From Bacteroidia bacterium (GTDB taxonomy: Bacteria; Bacteroidota; Bacteroidia; UBA4408), in the NCBI GenBank assembly GCA_044374175.1, contig JBILPB010000003.1, positions 1 to 62,468 on the forward strand: a stretch of DNA of 62,468 nt, in the 5' to 3' direction. Of this stretch, positions 928 to 25,540 are shown piece after piece (position 1 is the stretch's first letter; every line of letters begins with the position of its first letter). The position numbers and the translations under genes were made by a program. The notes beneath the pieces were generated by a model. That model did not search any database and was not told where the DNA came from. It saw only the letters and a list, made by a program, of their open reading frames with translations.

Positions 928-3102
928 ATGATTAAGAAAAAAGCAGGATTTATTTTTGAAGGCGTAATCAACAGTTACTCTGTCTTGTTTTTTTCTAATC
1001 ATAAGGTATTTGCATACTTATTACTGGTTATAAGCTTTTTTAATCCTGCTGCTGGTTTAGCTGGTTTAATAGCTGTTTTAACTGCGGTTTTTACAGCAAC
1101 TACAATGGGATTTAATGCAGCATCAACCAAAGCAGGTTTTTATAGTTTTAATGCTTTGCTTATAGGTATTGGTTTGGGTTCTTTTTTTGAAAGTTCTCCT
1201 GTGTTTTTCTTCTTATTAATTTTAGCATCTTTATTTACTTTGGTGCTATCGGTTACGCTAAGTGGTGTTTTAGGAAAATATGGCTTACCTTTTTTATCTA
1301 TTCCCTTTATTACTACTTTTTGGATACTCCTTCTGGCCACCAAAGAGTTCAGCAATTTGGGATTGAGTCAGAGAAATATTTATTGGATCAATGAAATGTA
1401 TGCTGTTGGGGGTAAACCCTTGTTAAGTTTATTTAATAGCATCGAAAATATTCCTATTCCAAAATGGCTCTCTACCTATTTCAGAGCCTTGAGTTCCATC
1501 TTTTTTCAGGATAATATTTTAAGTGGTTTTTTACTTTCGATAGGCATTTTAGTTTACTCAAGAATTGCCTTTTCACTCAGTTTAATTGGCTTTTTTGGGG
1601 CTTATTTGTTTAACGATTTTACTGGTGCCTATGAGGCTGGCATCAACTCCTATCATTTGGGTAGTAATTACATGATGACAGCCATGGCAATAGGTGGTTT
1701 CTTTGCTATACCGAGCTTCTATAGTTATATATGGGCATTTTTTAGTGTTCCCATTACTAATATTTTGGTGATTGCCCTCTCAAAAGTTTTTGGGGTTTTT
1801 GCTTTGCCTATTTTCTCGTTACCATTTTGCATCATGATTTTGTTGTATTTATACTTTTTAAAAATGCGAATTTTAGCAGGAAAATTGGTTCTAACACCCA
1901 TTCAACATTACTCTCCAGAAGTTAATTTATATCAGTTTAAAAATGGCAGTGAGCGGTTAAAAAATGAATATTATTTTAAATTTAATTTGCCTGTGATCGG
2001 AGAATGGGCAGTTACACAAGGTTATGATGGAAACATTACCCATAAAGATGATTGGAGCAAGGCCTTAGACTTTATGATTTTAGATCAACAACTTAAATCA
2101 TTTTCTGGCAACGGAACCGCACTTGAAAATTTTTACAGCTATAACAAACCCGTATTGGCCGCGGGAGATGGCTATGTGCAGGAAATTGTAGACTATATTG
2201 AAGATAATCCAATTGGAGAAATTAACAGAGAACAAAATTGGGGAAATTCAATAATATTGTATCATTCCATAGGTTTATTTTCAAAGTTATCGCATCTTAA
2301 GAAAAACTCATTTATTGTAAAGCAAGGCGACTACGTAAAAAAGGGACAAGTGCTTGCTTATTGCGGTAATTCTGGAAGATCACCTGAACCACATTTACAT
2401 TTTCAAATTCAATCAGCACCTTATATTGGCAGTAAAACACTGGCTTATCCAATCAGTTATTTTTATCAGAGTGATGGAAAAGACATTCAATATCTAACAT
2501 TTTCTACTCCTCAAGAAGGCAGCTTTGTTGCAAATATCAATATCAACAAATTATTGCATCAAGCATTTGCCTTCCAACCAGGATATAGTATTAAATATAA
2601 AGAAGGAAACACGATTGAAACGTGGACTGTGTTCACTGATGCCTACAATCAAACCTATATTAGTTGTAAGGAAAACAACGCGGTAGCCTACTTTGTAAAC
2701 AATGAAACTGTTTTTTATTTTACTAACTTCTATGGAAGTAAAGCCTCCATATTGTATCAATTTTATTTATCTATATTTAAAGTTGTATTGAGTTACATGC
2801 CGCAAGTTATCATCAACGATGTGCTTCCATTAAGTATGGTGCAAGCGCCTTTTGTAAAATTAATACAAGATTTTGTGGCTCCGTTTGTGCAACTTATAAA
2901 ACCAAAGTACACGTTAAATTATACAAGTATAGATGATGAACATTTTACTTCTGAAATAACGCTTGAATCTATAATTGAGATTGACGCTATGGGTTATAAA
3001 AGTGTTTTCAGAACTAGCCAAATAATTTTAAGCAATGGAAAATTAAATCAATTAGTGATTAATCAAGCTGGCAAGGAGAGAGTTTTTACATGTATAGATT
3101 AG
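928..3102 (+). CDS. Urea transporter (UT) family membrane domain fused to an M23 metallopeptidase domain and a C-terminal extension
   Basis: The first ~310 aa are hydrophobic with duplicated UT-like halves (GFYSFNALLIG/PFLSIPF and GSNYMMTAMA/PIFSLPF). They are followed by M23 motifs: HKDDWSKALDF, VLAAGDG, NWGNSIIL, SHLKKNS..VKQGDYVKKGQVLAYCGNSGRSPEPHLHFQ. Confidence 0.85.
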   Translation: MIKKKAGFIFEGVINSYSVLFFSNHKVFAYLLLVISFFNPAAGLAGLIAVLTAVFTATTMGFNAASTKAGFYSFNALLIGIGLGSFFESSPVFFFLLILASLFTLVLSVTLSGVLGKYGLPFLSIPFITTFWILLLATKEFSNLGLSQRNIYWINEMYAVGGKPLLSLFNSIENIPIPKWLSTYFRALSSIFFQDNILSGFLLSIGILVYSRIAFSLSLIGFFGAYLFNDFTGAYEAGINSYHLGSNYMMTAMAIGGFFAIPSFYSYIWAFFSVPITNILVIALSKVFGVFALPIFSLPFCIMILLYLYFLKMRILAGKLVLTPIQHYSPEVNLYQFKNGSERLKNEYYFKFNLPVIGEWAVTQGYDGNITHKDDWSKALDFMILDQQLKSFSGNGTALENFYSYNKPVLAAGDGYVQEIVDYIEDNPIGEINREQNWGNSIILYHSIGLFSKLSHLKKNSFIVKQGDYVKKGQVLAYCGNSGRSPEPHLHFQIQSAPYIGSKTLAYPISYFYQSDGKDIQYLTFSTPQEGSFVANININKLLHQAFAFQPGYSIKYKEGNTIETWTVFTDAYNQTYISCKENNAVAYFVNNETVFYFTNFYGSKASILYQFYLSIFKVVLSYMPQVIINDVLPLSMVQAPFVKLIQDFVAPFVQLIKPKYTLNYTSIDDEHFTSEITLESIIEIDAMGYKSVFRTSQIILSNGKLNQLVINQAGKERVFTCID

Positions 3103-4298
3103 CAATCATCATATGGTTTTGTTTAAGTTGTGTAAGCTCGGTAAGTAGTCAGCAGATTACCTATGGCTATTTTGATAGTTTAAGCTATGCACAATATGTG
3201 GCGGGCGATTGGGATCATTTATTGCAAACTGCTGAAATTGCCAAAAATGCCGATATCAGTTTTCCTTTGTTAAGTATGAGAATAGGTTATGCTGCCCTAA
3301 TGAAAGGCAATAATAGTTTATCATTAAAGCATTATTCAAACGCTTTGGAATTTGATAGTTATAATCAAGATGCACTTTATTATGCTGTGCTCAACAATAC
3401 CTTACTTTCGAGAAGAGATGCTGCATCGTATATTTCTTTAAATTTAAATGATGCTATCAAAAAGCCATTAAATGTGGGATATAAAAAGTTGGTAGAAATA
3501 ATAGATATAGAATTGAGCTTTAAGTCTACCAATAATGAAACGCGTAAGCTAGGTCAATACTATAGGTTTGGCATTGGAAATAGAATTAATTACCGTTGGA
3601 AACTTTATCATAGCTTTATAACCTACAGACAGAATTTATTAGAGCCTAAAACTAATCAGAGAAATGCTGGTCCTCCAAACAGAAACGCACCAATAAGTTT
3701 TAGAAGTTTCTTAACACATGATTATCAATACTTTTTAAAATCTGAAGTATGTATAAATTCTAAATTCTCATTGACTAATGCATTTCATTACACACATACT
3801 AATTTTGATGATGCAACTTATAATACCTATATTTTTAATATTGGGCTTAAAATAACACAACCATTTATTGATTATAAAATTGAGTTAAACGCAGGTCCAA
3901 TGCTTGATTCATTGCTAGCTCAAGTGGCAGTATCATCGACATACCAGCCATTTGGAAATTTAATTTTTTATGGAAACAGTAGATTGAGTTTTCAAAAAAG
4001 AACCCACCAATCTCAACTTAATTTTTCGCAAATGCTTGGGTTTAAACTTAGTAATAAATTATGGTTAGAAACACATGCTACACTTGGACAAATAAAAAAC
4101 TTAATTGACAACGATGCCCTTTATATTTACGATGCACTTGATGCTGGTAAATTTAGAATTGGGGCAAGCCTATTGATACCTTTTACACCAAAACTTACCT
4201 TCCAAGGAAATTATTATTTCGAACCAAAAATACTATATTTACAAAACAACATTTACAATTTAAATTCATTTACATTAGGAATATCATGGAAACTATAA
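3090..4298 (+). CDS. Secreted protein with N-terminal TPR-like helices and a probable C-terminal outer-membrane beta-barrel
   Basis: Signal peptide, a TPR-like segment (RIGYAALMKGNNSLSLKHYSNALEFDSYNQDALYY), alternating aromatic beta-strands in the C-terminal part, ending GISWKL. Confidence 0.55.
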   Translation: MYRLAIIIWFCLSCVSSVSSQQITYGYFDSLSYAQYVAGDWDHLLQTAEIAKNADISFPLLSMRIGYAALMKGNNSLSLKHYSNALEFDSYNQDALYYAVLNNTLLSRRDAASYISLNLNDAIKKPLNVGYKKLVEIIDIELSFKSTNNETRKLGQYYRFGIGNRINYRWKLYHSFITYRQNLLEPKTNQRNAGPPNRNAPISFRSFLTHDYQYFLKSEVCINSKFSLTNAFHYTHTNFDDATYNTYIFNIGLKITQPFIDYKIELNAGPMLDSLLAQVAVSSTYQPFGNLIFYGNSRLSFQKRTHQSQLNFSQMLGFKLSNKLWLETHATLGQIKNLIDNDALYIYDALDAGKFRIGASLLIPFTPKLTFQGNYYFEPKILYLQNNIYNLNSFTLGISWKL

Positions 4299-12111: not shown

Positions 12112-15108
12112 TTAATATCCGAATACATCTTCAAGCTTAAGATAAGTAAGTTTACCATAACCTTCTAATGTTTTAATGTCTAAAGTATTTTTGTTTCCTA
12201 GCACCATAATATTGTATTTTTTATCTTTAAAATGTGCTTGTTGAAACGCTTTAATATTTTCAAATTTCATTGCTGGTACTGCTGCAAAAACATCCTTTCT
12301 CATATCATAAGAGTTCCCCATTTTTTTAGCGTTCATATAGTTAAATAAAATACCACTTTTAGTAATTCTTTCGGTTCTAATTTGCTCTTCAACTGCTTTT
12401 TTGGCGTTGTTAAACATGTTTTCACTTTCTGGTAAATTGTTCATTAATTCAAACATACCTTTCATTGCTTCTGGTAATTTATCGGCTTGTGTTCCAATGT
12501 ATGCCAGCGCATAATGAGATCTTTCTTTATTTTGAGGCCCACGGTAACTACTAAACACAGAGTAGGCTAAAGCTTTTGATTCGCGCATGGTTTGAAAAAC
12601 AATACTTCCCATTCCACCTCCAAAATATTCATTAAATAAAGTTATGGTGGGCAAGTTATTTCTATTGTATTTTTCATCTTTAGAAAGCATCATAATTTCA
12701 GCTTGTTTCATATCATAATCAATTACAAAAACTTCTGTTTGTTTATTATCTTGTTCGGTAAAACCAATTGGTGTTGGTATTGCTTTTAAAGGCGTTGGTG
12801 CCTTATGATTTGCGTTGATTTTGTTGGTAAATATATCGGCTGTTAAAGGGCCATAATAATAAATATCATGCTGATAGGAAGTTAAATCTTTTATTCTTTG
12901 AATTAACTCATCAGGATTAATAGCTTTTAGCTCTTCAGCTGATAAAATATTGGTATAAGGAGACTTTGAACCATACACTGCATAATTATACATTCCACTC
13001 CACAATATTTTGCCTTTACTTAACTTATCGTCTTCGCGTTGTTTTAAAATAGATGATACTAAATTATCTAAAGCTACTTTATCTGCTTTTGCGTTCTTAA
13101 GCAAACCTTCAAATAGTATAAGGGCAGTTTCAAAACTTTCGTTCAAGCCTTCTAAACTAACATAAACTTGATCTTCTGAAGTAAACACATTATAGTTACA
13201 TCCAAGTTTGTAAAATTCTTGCTTAAGCTGCTCATTGGTTAATTCTGCTGTTCCCAAGAAATTTAAATACTCAACAGCAAGTCCTAATTTTTTGTCATGA
13301 TTTTTACCCATTTCAACCACATAATACAAGTTAAACAAATTGTTTTCTTTGTTTTGGGTGGTATAAATAGGAGCTCCAACCATAGTTTTATATTGTATGA
13401 TATCTTTACTATAATCTAAGAAAACAGGCTCAATAGCTGGTGATTTAGCATCCATAATGCTTTTCAAGAAAGGAGATTGCGCATCACGATTTACTTCAAC
13501 AGGAGTAATTTCTGGCTTTATAACTTTCTGAACATTTTTATCTTCGCCAGTGCGTTTGTATACTACTACATAGTTTTGATTTAAATTGGCTTTTGCCCAA
13601 GCTACTATTTGCTCTTTAGTGATTGCGCCTAATTTATTTATTTGATTAGTATAATCAGTCCATGATTTTTCATTTACAAATGCATTAACCATGGCCATTG
13701 CTCTTGAACCATTGTCTTCATATTCTTTGGTTTGTTGCAATTTTATATCATTGATAATCGCCTTCATCATCCAATCAGGAAAATCACCTTTTTTTAATTT
13801 TTCAATCTCTGCTAACACTAAATCTTTCGTTTGCTCAAGTGTTTGGCCTTCTTTAGCATTGGCATCCAAAATAAAAACACCATAATCTTTTAAAATATAT
13901 GGAAACACCGATGAACTAAGTACCTTTTGTTGTTGATTTAAATTTAAATCCATTAAACCTGCTGTTCCATTGTATAAAATTTTAGCTGCAATCTCAGCAA
14001 GCTCTGCGTCTGCAGTACTTTGACCACCAAGGCGGTATGCAAGTAGCATTGATTCTGCGTCTGGTCCAAAAACTTCCTTAACAATTGGCTGAGTAATTGG
14101 CTCTTCTTTACCTGGCGTATAAACAGGCACCGGTTTTGATTTCATACTTCCAAAACGACTGTCAATTAAACGAATGGTTTGCTCGTAATCAAAATCACCC
14201 GACATACAAATGGCCATGTTGTTTGGCACATAATAAGTATCATAATATTCCTTTATTTTTTTAATGGAAGGATTTTTCAAATGTTCAATTGTACCAATGG
14301 TAGTTTGTTTACCGTAGTTATTGTTTGGAAATATGGCAGCAAACAATGTTTCAAAAACTTTACGACCATCGTTATCCAAACCTCTGTTTTTTTCTTCATA
14401 CACTGCTTCTAACTCTGTATGAAAAATACGCAAAACAGGATTGCGGAAACGTTCAGCTTCAATTGTTAACCACTTCTCTAATTGATTTGATGGTATATCG
14501 TTTACATAAACAGTTTGCTCAAATGATGTAAAAGCATTGGTACCAGTAGCACCAATTGAACTCAACATTTTATCATACTCATTGGCAATGGCGTATTTTG
14601 CAGCTACACCACTTATACTGTCGATTTGGTGATACATTGATTTGCGCTTCTCTTCATCCTTAGTAACGCGGTATGCTTCGTAAAGCGCTTCAATTTTATC
14701 AAGTTCAACTTTTTCTTTTGCAAAATCTAAACTTCCATATTTATCAGTACCTTTAAATAACAAATGCTCCAAATAATGGGCTAAACCTGTGGCATCTGCA
14801 GGATCACTTTTACTTCCAGCCTTAGTTGCAATATAAGTTTGGATACGAGGAGCATCTTTGTAAACACTTAAATAAACTTTTAAACCATTGGCCAAAGTAT
14901 AGATTCTTGCATTTAATAAATCGCCTTTAACCGATTCATACTTGTATTCTATATCACTTTTTTGTTGAGCTTGCGCAGCTTTGCTAGCTTCAGCAGGTGT
15001 TGGACTTATTTGAGTGCTTTTTAAAACTTGCACGTTCTTTTGAGCTATACTGCAGGCAGATACAATTGCAACAATATAAAGACTTAATTTAATCTTCAAT
15101 TTAATCAT
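12112..15108 (-). CDS. M16 (insulinase-family) zinc metallopeptidase, four-domain, probable lipoprotein
   Basis: HYLEH (HxxEH), NAFTS, RESKALAYS; SAC lipobox-like leader. Confidence 0.93.
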   Translation of the reverse strand: MIKLKIKLSLYIVAIVSACSIAQKNVQVLKSTQISPTPAEASKAAQAQQKSDIEYKYESVKGDLLNARIYTLANGLKVYLSVYKDAPRIQTYIATKAGSKSDPADATGLAHYLEHLLFKGTDKYGSLDFAKEKVELDKIEALYEAYRVTKDEEKRKSMYHQIDSISGVAAKYAIANEYDKMLSSIGATGTNAFTSFEQTVYVNDIPSNQLEKWLTIEAERFRNPVLRIFHTELEAVYEEKNRGLDNDGRKVFETLFAAIFPNNNYGKQTTIGTIEHLKNPSIKKIKEYYDTYYVPNNMAICMSGDFDYEQTIRLIDSRFGSMKSKPVPVYTPGKEEPITQPIVKEVFGPDAESMLLAYRLGGQSTADAELAEIAAKILYNGTAGLMDLNLNQQQKVLSSSVFPYILKDYGVFILDANAKEGQTLEQTKDLVLAEIEKLKKGDFPDWMMKAIINDIKLQQTKEYEDNGSRAMAMVNAFVNEKSWTDYTNQINKLGAITKEQIVAWAKANLNQNYVVVYKRTGEDKNVQKVIKPEITPVEVNRDAQSPFLKSIMDAKSPAIEPVFLDYSKDIIQYKTMVGAPIYTTQNKENNLFNLYYVVEMGKNHDKKLGLAVEYLNFLGTAELTNEQLKQEFYKLGCNYNVFTSEDQVYVSLEGLNESFETALILFEGLLKNAKADKVALDNLVSSILKQREDDKLSKGKILWSGMYNYAVYGSKSPYTNILSAEELKAINPDELIQRIKDLTSYQHDIYYYGPLTADIFTNKINANHKAPTPLKAIPTPIGFTEQDNKQTEVFVIDYDMKQAEIMMLSKDEKYNRNNLPTITLFNEYFGGGMGSIVFQTMRESKALAYSVFSSYRGPQNKERSHYALAYIGTQADKLPEAMKGMFELMNNLPESENMFNNAKKAVEEQIRTERITKSGILFNYMNAKKMGNSYDMRKDVFAAVPAMKFENIKAFQQAHFKDKKYNIMVLGNKNTLDIKTLEGYGKLTYLKLEDVFGY

Positions 15109-15118
15109 TTTTTTGGTT

Positions 15119-16921
15119 TTATATTTCTAAATCTAATTGACTTCTAAATGTTTCTAAAATAGGATTTATTTGCACTAAGCGCATGTATTTTTCGCGATTA
15201 GTATAAGGCTTACGCTCAGTTTCATCTTTACTTACTTCCAAAATAATTTGGATGTAATCGTTTTGCAAATCATTTCTTAATTGTAAACTCAAATCTGTTA
15301 GTACAGCTTGCACATCACTTTCTTGAACTGCGTTGTATAATTTAAATAAGATTTGATTTGACTCAACAATAACAGGTTTGGCAACAGTTAAAGTATGCCA
15401 TAAAGATGTTTTACCTTTTTCATCTACTTGTTTTGCATAAGCAGCCCAGGAGGTTTGCAATTGCTCTTCAGTAAAAACATTATTTCTAAGGTTGTTACTA
15501 TTTACAATCTCCTCCTTATCAATAGTTTTAGACTGATTAAGCATAGATGCAATGGATGGCTTTCCAATGCTAAAATTCTTAGGTGATATTACTTTTTTAA
15601 TTTCAGCTTTTTGCTCTAAAGGCTGTGTAATTAGAGTTTTACCAATATCTTCACTTTCTGATTCCTCCACCGTTGAAGCAGAAGTATTTGTTTGAATGCT
15701 TGAATTTATTGACTCACTATTTGTGCTGTATGCTGTATCTTTAGGAGCTTCTGGTAGTTCTGTGCTTGCAGCAACTGTAACCTCATTTAGGACAGTGTCA
15801 GGCTTTTTTTTTTCGCTGTCAAGTTTTAAACCTTGCAACGTACACAACTGCATGAGTGCTAACTCTACTAAAAGCCGCTGATTTACACTCATTTTATAGG
15901 CACCTTCTGTTTTAGTGCAAATTTCTAAGCCTTTAATTAAAAAAGACATTTCACAACGACCGGCCTGACTCTTGTATTTTTCTTTAATGCCCTGACTAGT
16001 TTCTAACAATTGCAAGGTAACGGCATCGCGACTTACCAATAAATTACGTAAGTGCTGTGCTAGGCCATTCACAAAGAAATTACCTTCAAACCCATTAGAT
16101 AAGATTTCATTGTACAATAGTAATGATGATGAAACATCCCCCACCAACAAGAAATCTGTAAGCTTAAAATAATAATCGTAATCTAAAATATTTAAATTTT
16201 CGATAACCGATTTGTAAGTAATATTGTTTCCAGCAAAGGTTACAATCTGATCGAACATACTCAAAGCATCTCGCAGCGCGCCATCCGCCTTCTGAGCTAT
16301 TACATGTAGACCATCATTTTCATAGGAGATATTTTCCTTTTGCGCAATTTCGGCCAAATGATTGGCCATATCTTCCACTTTAATACGGTTGAAATCAAAA
16401 ATTTGACAACGCGATAATATCGTAGGAATAATTTTATGTTTTTCGGTAGTGGCTAAAATAAAAATTGCATGTGGTGGTGGCTCTTCCAAGGTTTTTAAAA
16501 AAGCATTGAAAGCTTGATTACTCAGCATGTGCACCTCATCAATAATAAATACTTTGTATTTACCAATTTGAGGAACAAAACGCACTTGATCCACTAAGTT
16601 TCTAATATCATCTACTGAATTATTGCTGGCCGCATCAAGCTCTAAAATATTTAATGAACGACCTTCATTAAAAGAAACGCAGGATTCACAAACATTGCAA
16701 GGTTCAGTATTTGCATCAACATTAAAACAATTGATAGTTTTAGCTAAAATACGCGCACTGGTTGTTTTGCCCACCCCACGCGGCCCACAAAACAAAAAAG
16801 CTTGTGCTAAATGATTGCTTTTAATCGCATTTTTTAGGGTAATGGTAATATGGCTCTGCCCCACCACCGAGTTAAAGGTGGAAGGCCTGTACTTACGTGC
16901 CGATACTACAAATTTTTCCAT
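15119..16921 (-). CDS. dnaX: DNA polymerase III subunit gamma/tau (600 aa from the ATG at 16921)
   Basis: SARKYRP, GPRGVGKTT (Walker A), Cys4 zinc site, DEVHMLS..AFNAFLKTLEEPP, TILSRCQ, followed by a low-complexity linker and a C-terminal domain. Confidence 0.97.
   Translation of the reverse strand: MEKFVVSARKYRPSTFNSVVGQSHITITLKNAIKSNHLAQAFLFCGPRGVGKTTSARILAKTINCFNVDANTEPCNVCESCVSFNEGRSLNILELDAASNNSVDDIRNLVDQVRFVPQIGKYKVFIIDEVHMLSNQAFNAFLKTLEEPPPHAIFILATTEKHKIIPTILSRCQIFDFNRIKVEDMANHLAEIAQKENISYENDGLHVIAQKADGALRDALSMFDQIVTFAGNNITYKSVIENLNILDYDYYFKLTDFLLVGDVSSSLLLYNEILSNGFEGNFFVNGLAQHLRNLLVSRDAVTLQLLETSQGIKEKYKSQAGRCEMSFLIKGLEICTKTEGAYKMSVNQRLLVELALMQLCTLQGLKLDSEKKKPDTVLNEVTVAASTELPEAPKDTAYSTNSESINSSIQTNTSASTVEESESEDIGKTLITQPLEQKAEIKKVISPKNFSIGKPSIASMLNQSKTIDKEEIVNSNNLRNNVFTEEQLQTSWAAYAKQVDEKGKTSLWHTLTVAKPVIVESNQILFKLYNAVQESDVQAVLTDLSLQLRNDLQNDYIQIILEVSKDETERKPYTNREKYMRLVQINPILETFRSQLDLEI
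15798..15814 (-). other. Candidate recoding (slippage/frameshift) site in dnaX
   Basis: Minus strand reads GAA AAA AAA AAG CCT GA: an A10 run, an in-frame A_AAA_AAG, and a -1 frame of GCC TGA. Confidence 0.65.
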
Positions 16922-16930
16922 TTGGGAGTG

Positions 16931-16938
16931 CAAATATA
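16931..16938 (-). promoter_or_regulatory. -7 promoter element for dnaX (very short leader)
   Basis: TATATTTG on the minus strand, ending 9 nt before the ATG at 16921. Confidence 0.6.
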
Positions 16939-17049: not shown

Positions 17050-17943
17050 CTACTTCTTAATCTCAATCTCATTCTTATTTAAAGCTTCATTGTAAACATC
17101 CATTTTCATGCCTTCAATAAGGGTAAGTTTACGTTTGTTAAGGATGATATTGCGGATATTTTCACGTTCAAAACTGAGTGGCGATACTGAATCTTTAATT
17201 TTAAAACCTTTGATGTTTACAAAATACAAATGCGCACTATCAGTAAGCTCTATAAATCTGTTATTTTTAAGATATTGCTCTTTGTCATAAGTTTCAATGG
17301 GAATTTCTTTTAATAAATCATCAAACAAAAGCCATGCATCCTCTTCTAAAAAATAGTTTTCTGCAAATTGATGGCAATAATCTTCTAAAGGCTTTTTATC
17401 AGTTGGCTTTCCCGATTTATACCATTCCTTTAATTTATTAATTTTGGGAGCATTCTTTTTCACTTTGATGTAAATTACCTTAATGATATTATCCTTCAAT
17501 TCAAAGTTCTGAGGATTTTTATTGTAATAGGCTTCAATTTCAGAATTGCTTACAGCTGTGTCTAATCTTTGATTTACCAAAGCTTTCTCAAAAGCGTAAG
17601 TGATGAGTGCATTTCTGTAACTTTCTAATTCATGTTCAACATCCTTTTGATCATCATCTAAGTTCTTTTCGGCATGCAATAAAACAACTTGTTGCTTTGC
17701 CCATGTTTCTGCAAAATTATGAACAAATACCACACTATCTTTACCATGCAATTTTTGCGGCATTTGTTCCAAAACTTCATCTAAATAAAGATAAGAATCA
17801 TAAACTCTTGCTAGCTCTGTACCTTCTTTTTTTTTGCCCTTTTTAAAGAATTTGCATTGTGTAAAAAGCATAGCCATCGCCAGCAATATGCAAATGCTAA
17901 TTATGGGAAATTTACAATTGGTGTTTATATGATTAATCTTCAC
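17050..17943 (-). CDS. SurA/PPIase-associated foldase-like lipoprotein
   Basis: Lipobox-like FTQC, ARVYDSYLY, SPLSFERENIRNIILNKRK; directly downstream of a PpiC-type PPIase. Confidence 0.7.
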   Translation of the reverse strand: MKINHINTNCKFPIISICILLAMAMLFTQCKFFKKGKKKEGTELARVYDSYLYLDEVLEQMPQKLHGKDSVVFVHNFAETWAKQQVVLLHAEKNLDDDQKDVEHELESYRNALITYAFEKALVNQRLDTAVSNSEIEAYYNKNPQNFELKDNIIKVIYIKVKKNAPKINKLKEWYKSGKPTDKKPLEDYCHQFAENYFLEEDAWLLFDDLLKEIPIETYDKEQYLKNNRFIELTDSAHLYFVNIKGFKIKDSVSPLSFERENIRNIILNKRKLTLIEGMKMDVYNEALNKNEIEIKK

Positions 17944-25488: not shown

Positions 25489-25525
25489 AAAAAAAAAGCT
25501 TTCCAAAAATGGAAAGCTTTTTTTT
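25489..25525 (-). terminator. Intrinsic terminator downstream of HU
   Basis: AAAAAAAAAGCTTTCCA-AAAA-TGGAAAGCTTTTTTTT. Confidence 0.88.
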
Positions 25526-25540
25526 AATGTGCTTTAGAAA

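Follow-up and report, generated by a model that had tools for sequence, protein, structure and literature searches.

Can a dnaX gene that reads as a single open reading frame (ORF) yield the short clamp-loader subunit gamma as well as full-length tau? The question is raised by the dnaX gene of an uncultured freshwater member of the Bacteroidia, which lies on the minus strand of the 62-kb contig analyzed here (JBILPB010000003.1, 62,468 nucleotides [nt]; we call this whole stretch the window). An earlier note on the window had proposed that a recoding site in this gene gives a 600-amino-acid (aa) tau plus a gamma of about 374 aa. The proposed site is a run of ten A's (A10), and we found that such a run is kept at the nucleotide level in most Bacteroidota dnaX genes. 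This conservation among orthologues strongly supports a recoding site at the run. The explanation that we favor, and hold to be reasonably likely, is programmed transcriptional slippage of the Thermus type, probably assisted by a hairpin, which would yield tau and gamma from one dnaX.

The clamp-loader core of DnaX is followed by an A10 run

The zero-frame ORF (15119-16921; this and all other dnaX features of the window are on the minus strand) was identified as dnaX by NCBIfam PRK14971 (790 bits, full length, residues 5 to 604 of the ORF as started at TTG). Its translation gives tau, 600 aa and 67.4 kDa, from an ATG at 16919-16921 to a stop codon at 15119-15121; an in-frame TTG further upstream, at 16931-16933, is the mechanical ORF start. 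The clamp-loader core that tau and gamma would have in common (15824-16921) consists of AAA+ domain I, lid domain II, and collar domain III (PF13177, PF22608, and PF12169) and matches E. coli gamma/tau structures, such as 1jr3, with E = 5e-70. The remainder (15119-15797), which gamma would lack, holds a low-complexity linker and a conserved C-terminal domain (PF28557/DUF8439); DUF8439 was called on the separate second ORF of L081, a relative whose dnaX is divided into two ORFs. Domain III ends at residue 370 in TTG numbering, four codons ahead of the run. Thus, the site lies right after the collar domain, where the earlier note had placed it.

At 15798-15814 the minus strand reads GAAAAAAAAAAGCCTGA, with the codons GAA AAA AAA AAG CCT GA, just as the earlier note had read codons 370 to 374 (E370 K371 K372 K373 P374, counted from the ATG). 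The A10 run itself, T10 in the RNA polymerase template, occupies 15804-15813 and is the proposed slippage site. It overlaps an in-frame A_AAA_AAG heptamer (15803-15809), a possible secondary site of −1 ribosomal frameshifting. With one additional A in the transcript (+1A), or with a −1 shift of the ribosome, the codons become AAA GCC TGA, and the predicted gamma then ends in EKKKA at a TGA (15798-15800) after 374 aa and 41.9 kDa. A transcript with one A fewer (−1A) reads AGC CTG ACA CTG TCC TAA and gives a product of 377 aa that ends in EKKSLTLS at a TAA (15787-15789), which would also close the product of a transcript with two additional A's (+2A). Both alternative endings agree with what had been claimed for the gene, and the two stops begin 3 nt and 14 nt past the run.

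The A10 is the sole homopolymer of at least 10 nt in the window, and about 10 A/T runs of at least 9 nt were found outside the dnaX site in 358 kb of related loci. In the contigs of four independent lake DNA runs that contain the window's species, the A10 is free of insertions and deletions (indels). Therefore, it is not an assembly error.

The run is conserved at the nucleotide level across the Bacteroidota

We collected 80 dnaX loci from species-representative Bacteroidota genomes, which together with the window make 81 genes, and recorded the longest A-run within 220 nt after domain III. The run is A10 in 54 of the 81 genes, A9 in 8, A11 in 4, and A7 in 1, and the remaining 14 have no run in this interval. 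Thus, 66 genes carry A9 to A11, and shorter runs of A7 or A8 are almost absent. The conservation extends beyond the coding of Lys: elsewhere in the same genes 69% of Lys codons are AAA and 31% are AAG, despite which AAG does not break the run in these 66, and the joint probability of unbroken runs is approximately 1e-24. The run is also intact in genomes of 59 to 60% GC (L034, L061, and L072), where AAA makes up 20 to 50% of Lys codons.

The surroundings of the run are far less constant than its length. Of the 66 runs, 34 begin at the second position of a codon, 22 at the third, and 10 at the first; 33 are followed by C, 25 by G, and 8 by T. An in-frame A_AAA_AAG heptamer is found in 16 (24%), A_AAA_AAC/T in 11, and only A_AAA_AAA in 38. 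Because codon phase and 3′ base vary, what is kept is ten consecutive A's and not a heptamer in a fixed frame or a peptide. Among the proteins, down to 52% identity, the sole conserved island of the otherwise unalignable linker is E-K-K-[K/N], and the residues encoded at the run vary (E/V/L/Q/D/T/S-KK-K/N) while the A's persist. On these sequence comparisons, the run is not due to chance, and its length is a conserved feature.

We then compared the distance to the first alternative-frame stop in all 66 run-bearing loci with that at other positions in the same genes. The stop in the +1A frame lies a median of 3 nt past the run, versus 22 nt for the controls, and is within 12 nt in 88% versus 36%. 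In the −1A frame the median is 10 nt versus 34 nt, and 92% versus 46% of stops fall within 30 nt. Control medians in GC-rich genomes are about 70 to 190 nt. Early closure of both frames fits the mechanism of Thermus, because transcripts there gain one, two, or more A's (PMC1088944; PMC5009743). A pure −1 ribosomal shift requires only one closed frame and leaves the early closure of the second unexplained.

Some lineages depart from the common arrangement. L005, one of the 14 loci that are runless within 220 nt of domain III, has an A10 at 2861-2870, 268 nt further along the linker, with alternative-frame stops 5 and 7 codons from its first codon and no adjoining hairpin. This displacement implies that the site can move within the linker. 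The dnaX genes that lack any linker A-run are mostly from Bacteroidaceae/Prevotellaceae (L044, L048, L053, L059, L066, L068, L069, and L070), and these share a G-R-(S/G)-P-K-K-x-(I/L)-K-P motif after domain III. In Caulobacter crescentus, gamma is made when ClpXP processes tau (Vass and Chien 2013, cited in PMC4756838); this posttranslational route leads to the same outcome, a shorter DnaX, and requires no slippery sequence. By analogy, ClpXP-like processing could serve the runless Bacteroidaceae/Prevotellaceae genes.

Loci of the Sphingobacteriia type (L099 to L103, L105, L106, L109, L117, L118, L121, L122, L035, and L040) have a conserved CT[CT]CCTGA 3′ of the run, with the TGA of the +1A frame two codons past it; a T precedes the run, which therefore starts at codon position 3. 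Judging from this shared motif, they carry a lineage-specific version of the cassette.

A hairpin adjoins the 5′ side of the run

The 27 nt that end at the run in the window (15814-15840) fold into an RNA hairpin, CGUUGCAAGG-UUUAAAA-CUUG(A)CAGCG, with 9 base pairs (bp), one bulge, and a dG of −9.3 to −9.8 kcal/mol. The pairing extends up to the G that immediately precedes the A-run, which makes the spacer 0 nt. To score such hairpins we compared each locus with every other position in its own gene, counting stems that end 0 to 4 nt from the run and applying the same rule at the control positions. The hairpin of the window ranks at about the 1% level in its gene. Among 48 dereplicated lineages, 19 (40%) are in the top 5% (binomial p = 5e-13), with spacers of 0 to 3 nt, and 30 are in the top 20%. 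Held-out metagenome loci gave a similar picture, with five of nine new contexts in the top 5% (p = 3e-5). Across the phylum the enrichment is on the 5′ side of the run only.

The stems are unrelated in sequence between lineages, as in Rufibacter (GACCUCUC…GAGAGGUC), Dyadobacter (GCCGUU…AACGGC), and Mucilaginibacter (AGCUGCCCC…GGGGAGCU). In an alignment of eight sequences from the window's clade, pairing holds in 93% of cells, versus 24 to 49% for slid partners. Two pairs of the hairpin are changed on both sides, one of them through the synonymous changes ACG to ACA and AGC to AGU. This covariation is supportive of a selected stem but, because the alignment holds only eight sequences, not decisive.

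A hairpin in this place has a precedent in an insertion sequence (IS) element of the IS630 family from Roseiflexus (Penno et al. 2015, as described in PMC5009743), where a stable hairpin likewise abuts the slippage motif on its 5′ side, in an arrangement like that of a terminator. The slippage that it stimulates has requirements like those of intrinsic terminators (PMC5009743). The Roseiflexus motif is a heteropolymeric T5C5 that does not slip without the hairpin and that loses one base, according to the same source. In contrast, the homopolymeric A10 of dnaX could slip alone, insertions would be expected, and the gene is a housekeeping gene and not a mobile element.

Two further observations concern the hairpin and the run. 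The contig graphs of DNA runs X3 and X4 fork exactly at the TGA after the run (window position 15798), where a second haplotype continues with another linker sequence; co-occurring strains share the hairpin, the run, and the stop and differ in the tau linker. In L083, a Joint Genome Institute metagenome contig with a 99% identical DnaX (P0004), 24 A's at 3091-3114 replace the 24 nt of AAAACTTGACAGCG plus A10. The length is unchanged, the protein reads KKKKKKKK, and the 3′ arm of the hairpin is lost, and this is probably an assembly or consensus artifact.

One-ORF and two-ORF dnaX genes interchange

The dnaX of the window is one 600-aa ORF. In contrast, two ORFs make up the dnaX of its relatives L081 and L082 and of eleven further loci; these eleven are 6 of the 80 genome loci (L025, L064, L065, L067, L077, and L080) and the metagenome loci L111 and L113 to L116. 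In these eleven two-ORF loci the zero frame meets a stop 0 to 7 nt past the A10, and the C-terminus of tau runs on in the +1A frame. The two forms are found among close relatives. L081 is 89% identical to the window's DnaX over the shared N-terminal part and has an A9 that puts tau out of frame. L082, with A10 and two ORFs, and L084, with A11 and one ORF, have identical flanks, and L001 and L091 have A11 and are in frame.

Switching between one and two ORFs is expected where recoding is efficient enough for either genotype to give both proteins (PMC5009743). Two-ORF dnaX genes with A10 were listed in 2013 for Flavobacterium johnsoniae, F. psychrophilum, Cytophaga hutchinsonii, Capnocytophaga, Chlorobi, and Coraliomargarita (Antonov et al., PMC3711429, Fig. 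S3), and those authors ascribed them to transcriptional realignment (PMC3711429). The window resembles these genes in phylum, in its A10 tract, and in the place of the tract in the gene. It differs in being one ORF, in which tau is the standard product and gamma would be the recoded one.

A slippage model for the production of tau and gamma

The proven slippage site in the dnaX of Thermus thermophilus (Larsen et al. 2000, as described in PMC1088944 and PMC5009743) is similar to that of the window: a single tau ORF has an A run after the core and near stops in both frames. The Thermus site reads GAG A9 GCCTGA, and the six bases after the run are the same as in the window. The window thus shares with the Thermus-type gene a dnaX with a conserved run of at least nine A's after the core and nearby stops in both alternative frames. 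It differs in having A10 and not A9; moreover, we found no report of a 5′ hairpin in Thermus, and slippage in the window's gene is a prediction.

We propose the following mechanism. On the T10 template, the RNA:DNA hybrid would become all A on its RNA side, over about the length of the 9- to 10-bp hybrid, and RNA polymerase would be able to realign. A substantial fraction of dnaX mRNAs would then have A11, A12, or A9 instead of A10. mRNAs that are unchanged, or changed by a multiple of three A's in either direction, would give the 600-aa tau. The others would end 1 to 5 codons past the run and give a gamma of about 374 to 377 aa (42 kDa), with domains I to III and without the C-terminus of tau. 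The hairpin would form in the RNA exit channel once the hybrid consists of A:T pairs only, where it may destabilize the hybrid and favor or modulate slippage, in the manner of the Roseiflexus element. Minus-one ribosomal frameshifting on A_AAA_AAG may add a minor share of the same EKKKA product.

We favor slippage because the length of the run is kept, both frames are closed, the ORF forms interchange, the Thermus site is alike, a 5′ hairpin is enriched, and the stimulators of E. coli dnaX are missing. In this respect our results agree with the earlier note, which had leaned toward polymerase slippage. More tentatively, and with less than even confidence, we extend the model to most Bacteroidota dnaX genes, in which a cassette of a terminator-like hairpin and a hybrid-length A10 may program slippage and set the tau:gamma ratio.

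Several points weigh against this model. Any A10 contains A_AAA_AAA/G heptamers, on which ribosomal frameshifting would yield the same EKKKA ending, and AT-rich organisms may have less slippery polymerases (PMC1088944). The hairpin is not obligatory, since 9 of the 48 dereplicated lineages (about 19%) have none that ends within 4 nt of the run, and the idea that it acts on RNA polymerase is drawn by analogy with the Roseiflexus element.

No metatranscriptome contig crosses the run of the window; six RNA runs hold parts of the gene only, and four more deep freshwater RNA runs contain nothing of it at 93% or 80% identity. Over orthologous runs, the RNA contigs of X27 and X31 match the genomic run length. 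The X27 contig, from the two-ORF relative L116 (651 nt, depth of 6.4), has A10, and L116 DNA has A10 in two assemblies; contigs in X31 from relatives have A10 and A11. However, assembly keeps the majority path, so that contigs can neither measure nor exclude a slipped minority. One L116 contig in X30 (160 nt, depth of 3.2, no mismatches) has A12, which is at best a hint of slippage in the RNA of this lineage and could be a strain variant or an artifact of reverse transcription or PCR at a depth of about 3. The L116 lineage is absent from DNA runs X1 to X4, and the F. johnsoniae site shown by Antonov et al. (Fig. S3) had 0 matches among the metagenome contigs. The named isolates among the 80 genome loci include no organism commonly studied by RNA-seq.

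Ribosomal frameshifting and other explanations

If RNA polymerase did not slip at the run, could ribosomes do so on an unaltered mRNA? In E. coli-type −1 programmed frameshifting, they would slip on A_AAA_AAG, read GCC, and stop at TGA. The window has the features that this requires at the slip site itself, since the exact heptamer is in frame and the −1-frame stop stands one codon on, as in E. coli dnaX, and the predicted gamma would likewise lack the C-terminus of tau. The bare E. coli dnaX heptamer without stimulators is reported to give approximately 14 to 16% frameshifting in vitro (bioRxiv 10.1101/2025.10.02.679949), and the shift that every two-ORF orthologue needs could also come from a −1 event. 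Bacteroidota are not mentioned in that 2025 preprint.

However, an in-frame A_AAA_AAG is present in only the 16 of 66 orthologues noted above, ten A's are conserved though seven would suffice, and the second alternative frame is also shut early. The window's site also lies about 60 codons nearer to domain III than that of E. coli, where gamma has 431 aa (8giy_B). A further mark of the E. coli type is a single tRNA-Lys (UUU anticodon) with no CUU isoacceptor; the window holds no tRNA genes.

The stimulators that accompany the E. coli site are likewise lacking. The earlier note had seen no clear downstream stem-loop, and the downstream sequence of the window indeed forms no more stable a fold than shuffled sequences do (z = +0.99 over 70 nt and +0.28 over 100 nt). 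Over 50 nt downstream of the run in the 66 orthologues, the mean z is −0.27, and stems that start within 4 or 10 nt downstream put 2 to 4% of loci in the top 5% in a percentile test, which is no enrichment. Upstream, there is no motif resembling a Shine-Dalgarno (SD) sequence at 10 to 14 nt from the run; the only candidate is an AAGG at −20, within the hairpin. The ribosomes of Bacteroidia sequester the anti-SD sequence and are blind to SD sequences (PMC7797042, PMC9976891, and PMC13000453), so that the host would have no SD pairing with which to stimulate a shift. The 5′ hairpin would sit inside the ribosome during decoding of the run, and a hairpin that directly precedes a ribosomal slip site has been reported to dampen −1 frameshifting and not to stimulate it (PMC6321510). 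Thus, as the main route to gamma, ribosomal frameshifting is unlikely.

These results also bear on the description of the site as E. coli-like in the earlier note. That description is not supported: the heptamer is an accident of phase (16 of 66), the stimulators are absent, and the Thermus site is closer. Thus, the note's inference of recoding is strongly supported and its E. coli-like framing is not, and it had missed both the 5′ hairpin and the two-ORF relatives.

We also considered that there is no programmed recoding at all. The run would then be a stretch of Lys-rich linker written in the preferred codon AAA in an AT-rich genome, and any slippage would be noise. The genome is 34% GC, the codon preference in these genes is in that direction, and out-of-frame stops are common in AT-rich DNA. 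However, the run is kept at 59 to 60% GC, where AAG is commoner than AAA or equal to it. The codon phase shifts and the residues change while the A's stay, in a linker whose flanking parts cannot be aligned, and long A/T runs are rare elsewhere in the loci. Moreover, whole lineages carry two-ORF forms of an essential gene (PMC3711429). We therefore regard this explanation as very improbable.

DNA-level phase variation, in which replication slippage in a contingency tract would toggle tau-only and gamma-only genotypes, can practically be set aside: run length does vary among close relatives (A9 in L081, A10 in L082, and A11 in L084, L001, and L091), but a gamma-only genotype would be lethal unless rescued by slippage at the level of expression, tau being reportedly essential in E. 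coli (a finding attributed to Blinkowa and colleagues in 1993), the A10 of the window's species is without an indel in all four independent DNA runs, and two-ORF states are fixed in whole lineages and not mixed.

Implications for dnaX expression and annotation

Slippage in Thermus dnaX and the A10 two-ORF genes of Bacteroidetes (2013) are already known, and the one-ORF form and the hairpin appear undescribed. In the searchable literature we found no description of a 5′ hairpin at dnaX or of a phylum-wide conservation of the one-ORF arrangement. That arrangement is a blind spot of screens for disrupted ORFs (PMC4066793; PMC1088944).

If hairpin-assisted slippage is correct, dnaX would provide the first demonstrated case of hairpin-stimulated transcriptional slippage in a housekeeping cellular gene, and the free switching of lineages between one-ORF and two-ORF dnaX would be explained. 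With the combination of hairpin and A10, a mechanism described for one IS element would be extended to a core gene of replication, and the many versions of this combination would form a natural variant series for how RNA structure tunes the realignment of polymerase. Flavobacterium johnsoniae and Pedobacter would be tractable models.

Few of the bacteria studied experimentally (E. coli, Thermus, and Caulobacter) are known to make gamma, and what it does there remains a matter of debate (PMC4756838). That a recoding signal is conserved phylum-wide at the nucleotide level argues for selection on a short DnaX. There is also a consequence for annotation. Two-ORF dnaX genes in metagenome-assembled genomes and isolates are easily called pseudogenes or truncated genes, and the interchange of the two forms accounts for truncated gene calls such as P0041 and P0045. 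In one-ORF genes, the gamma product would go unannotated.

Neighboring genes and other repeats in the window

The window has no matches to Rfam families. A gene for a 998-aa double M16 peptidase (12112-15108, minus strand) begins 11 nt past the dnaX stop. An M16 peptidase gene also follows dnaX in L085, L086, and L091, and the pair is thus syntenic in the window's clade. A second coding A9 run, at 17827-17835, lies in the gene upstream of dnaX (ORF 17050-17943, minus strand). It reads GGC AAA AAA AAA GAA and encodes part of …FFKKGKKKEG…, just past a lipoprotein-like N-terminus. A further A9 is found in noncoding sequence at 25489-25530, where it is followed by the inverted repeat AAAGCTTTCC-AAAAAT-GGAAAGCTTT and then by T's, and this element looks like a bidirectional intrinsic terminator.

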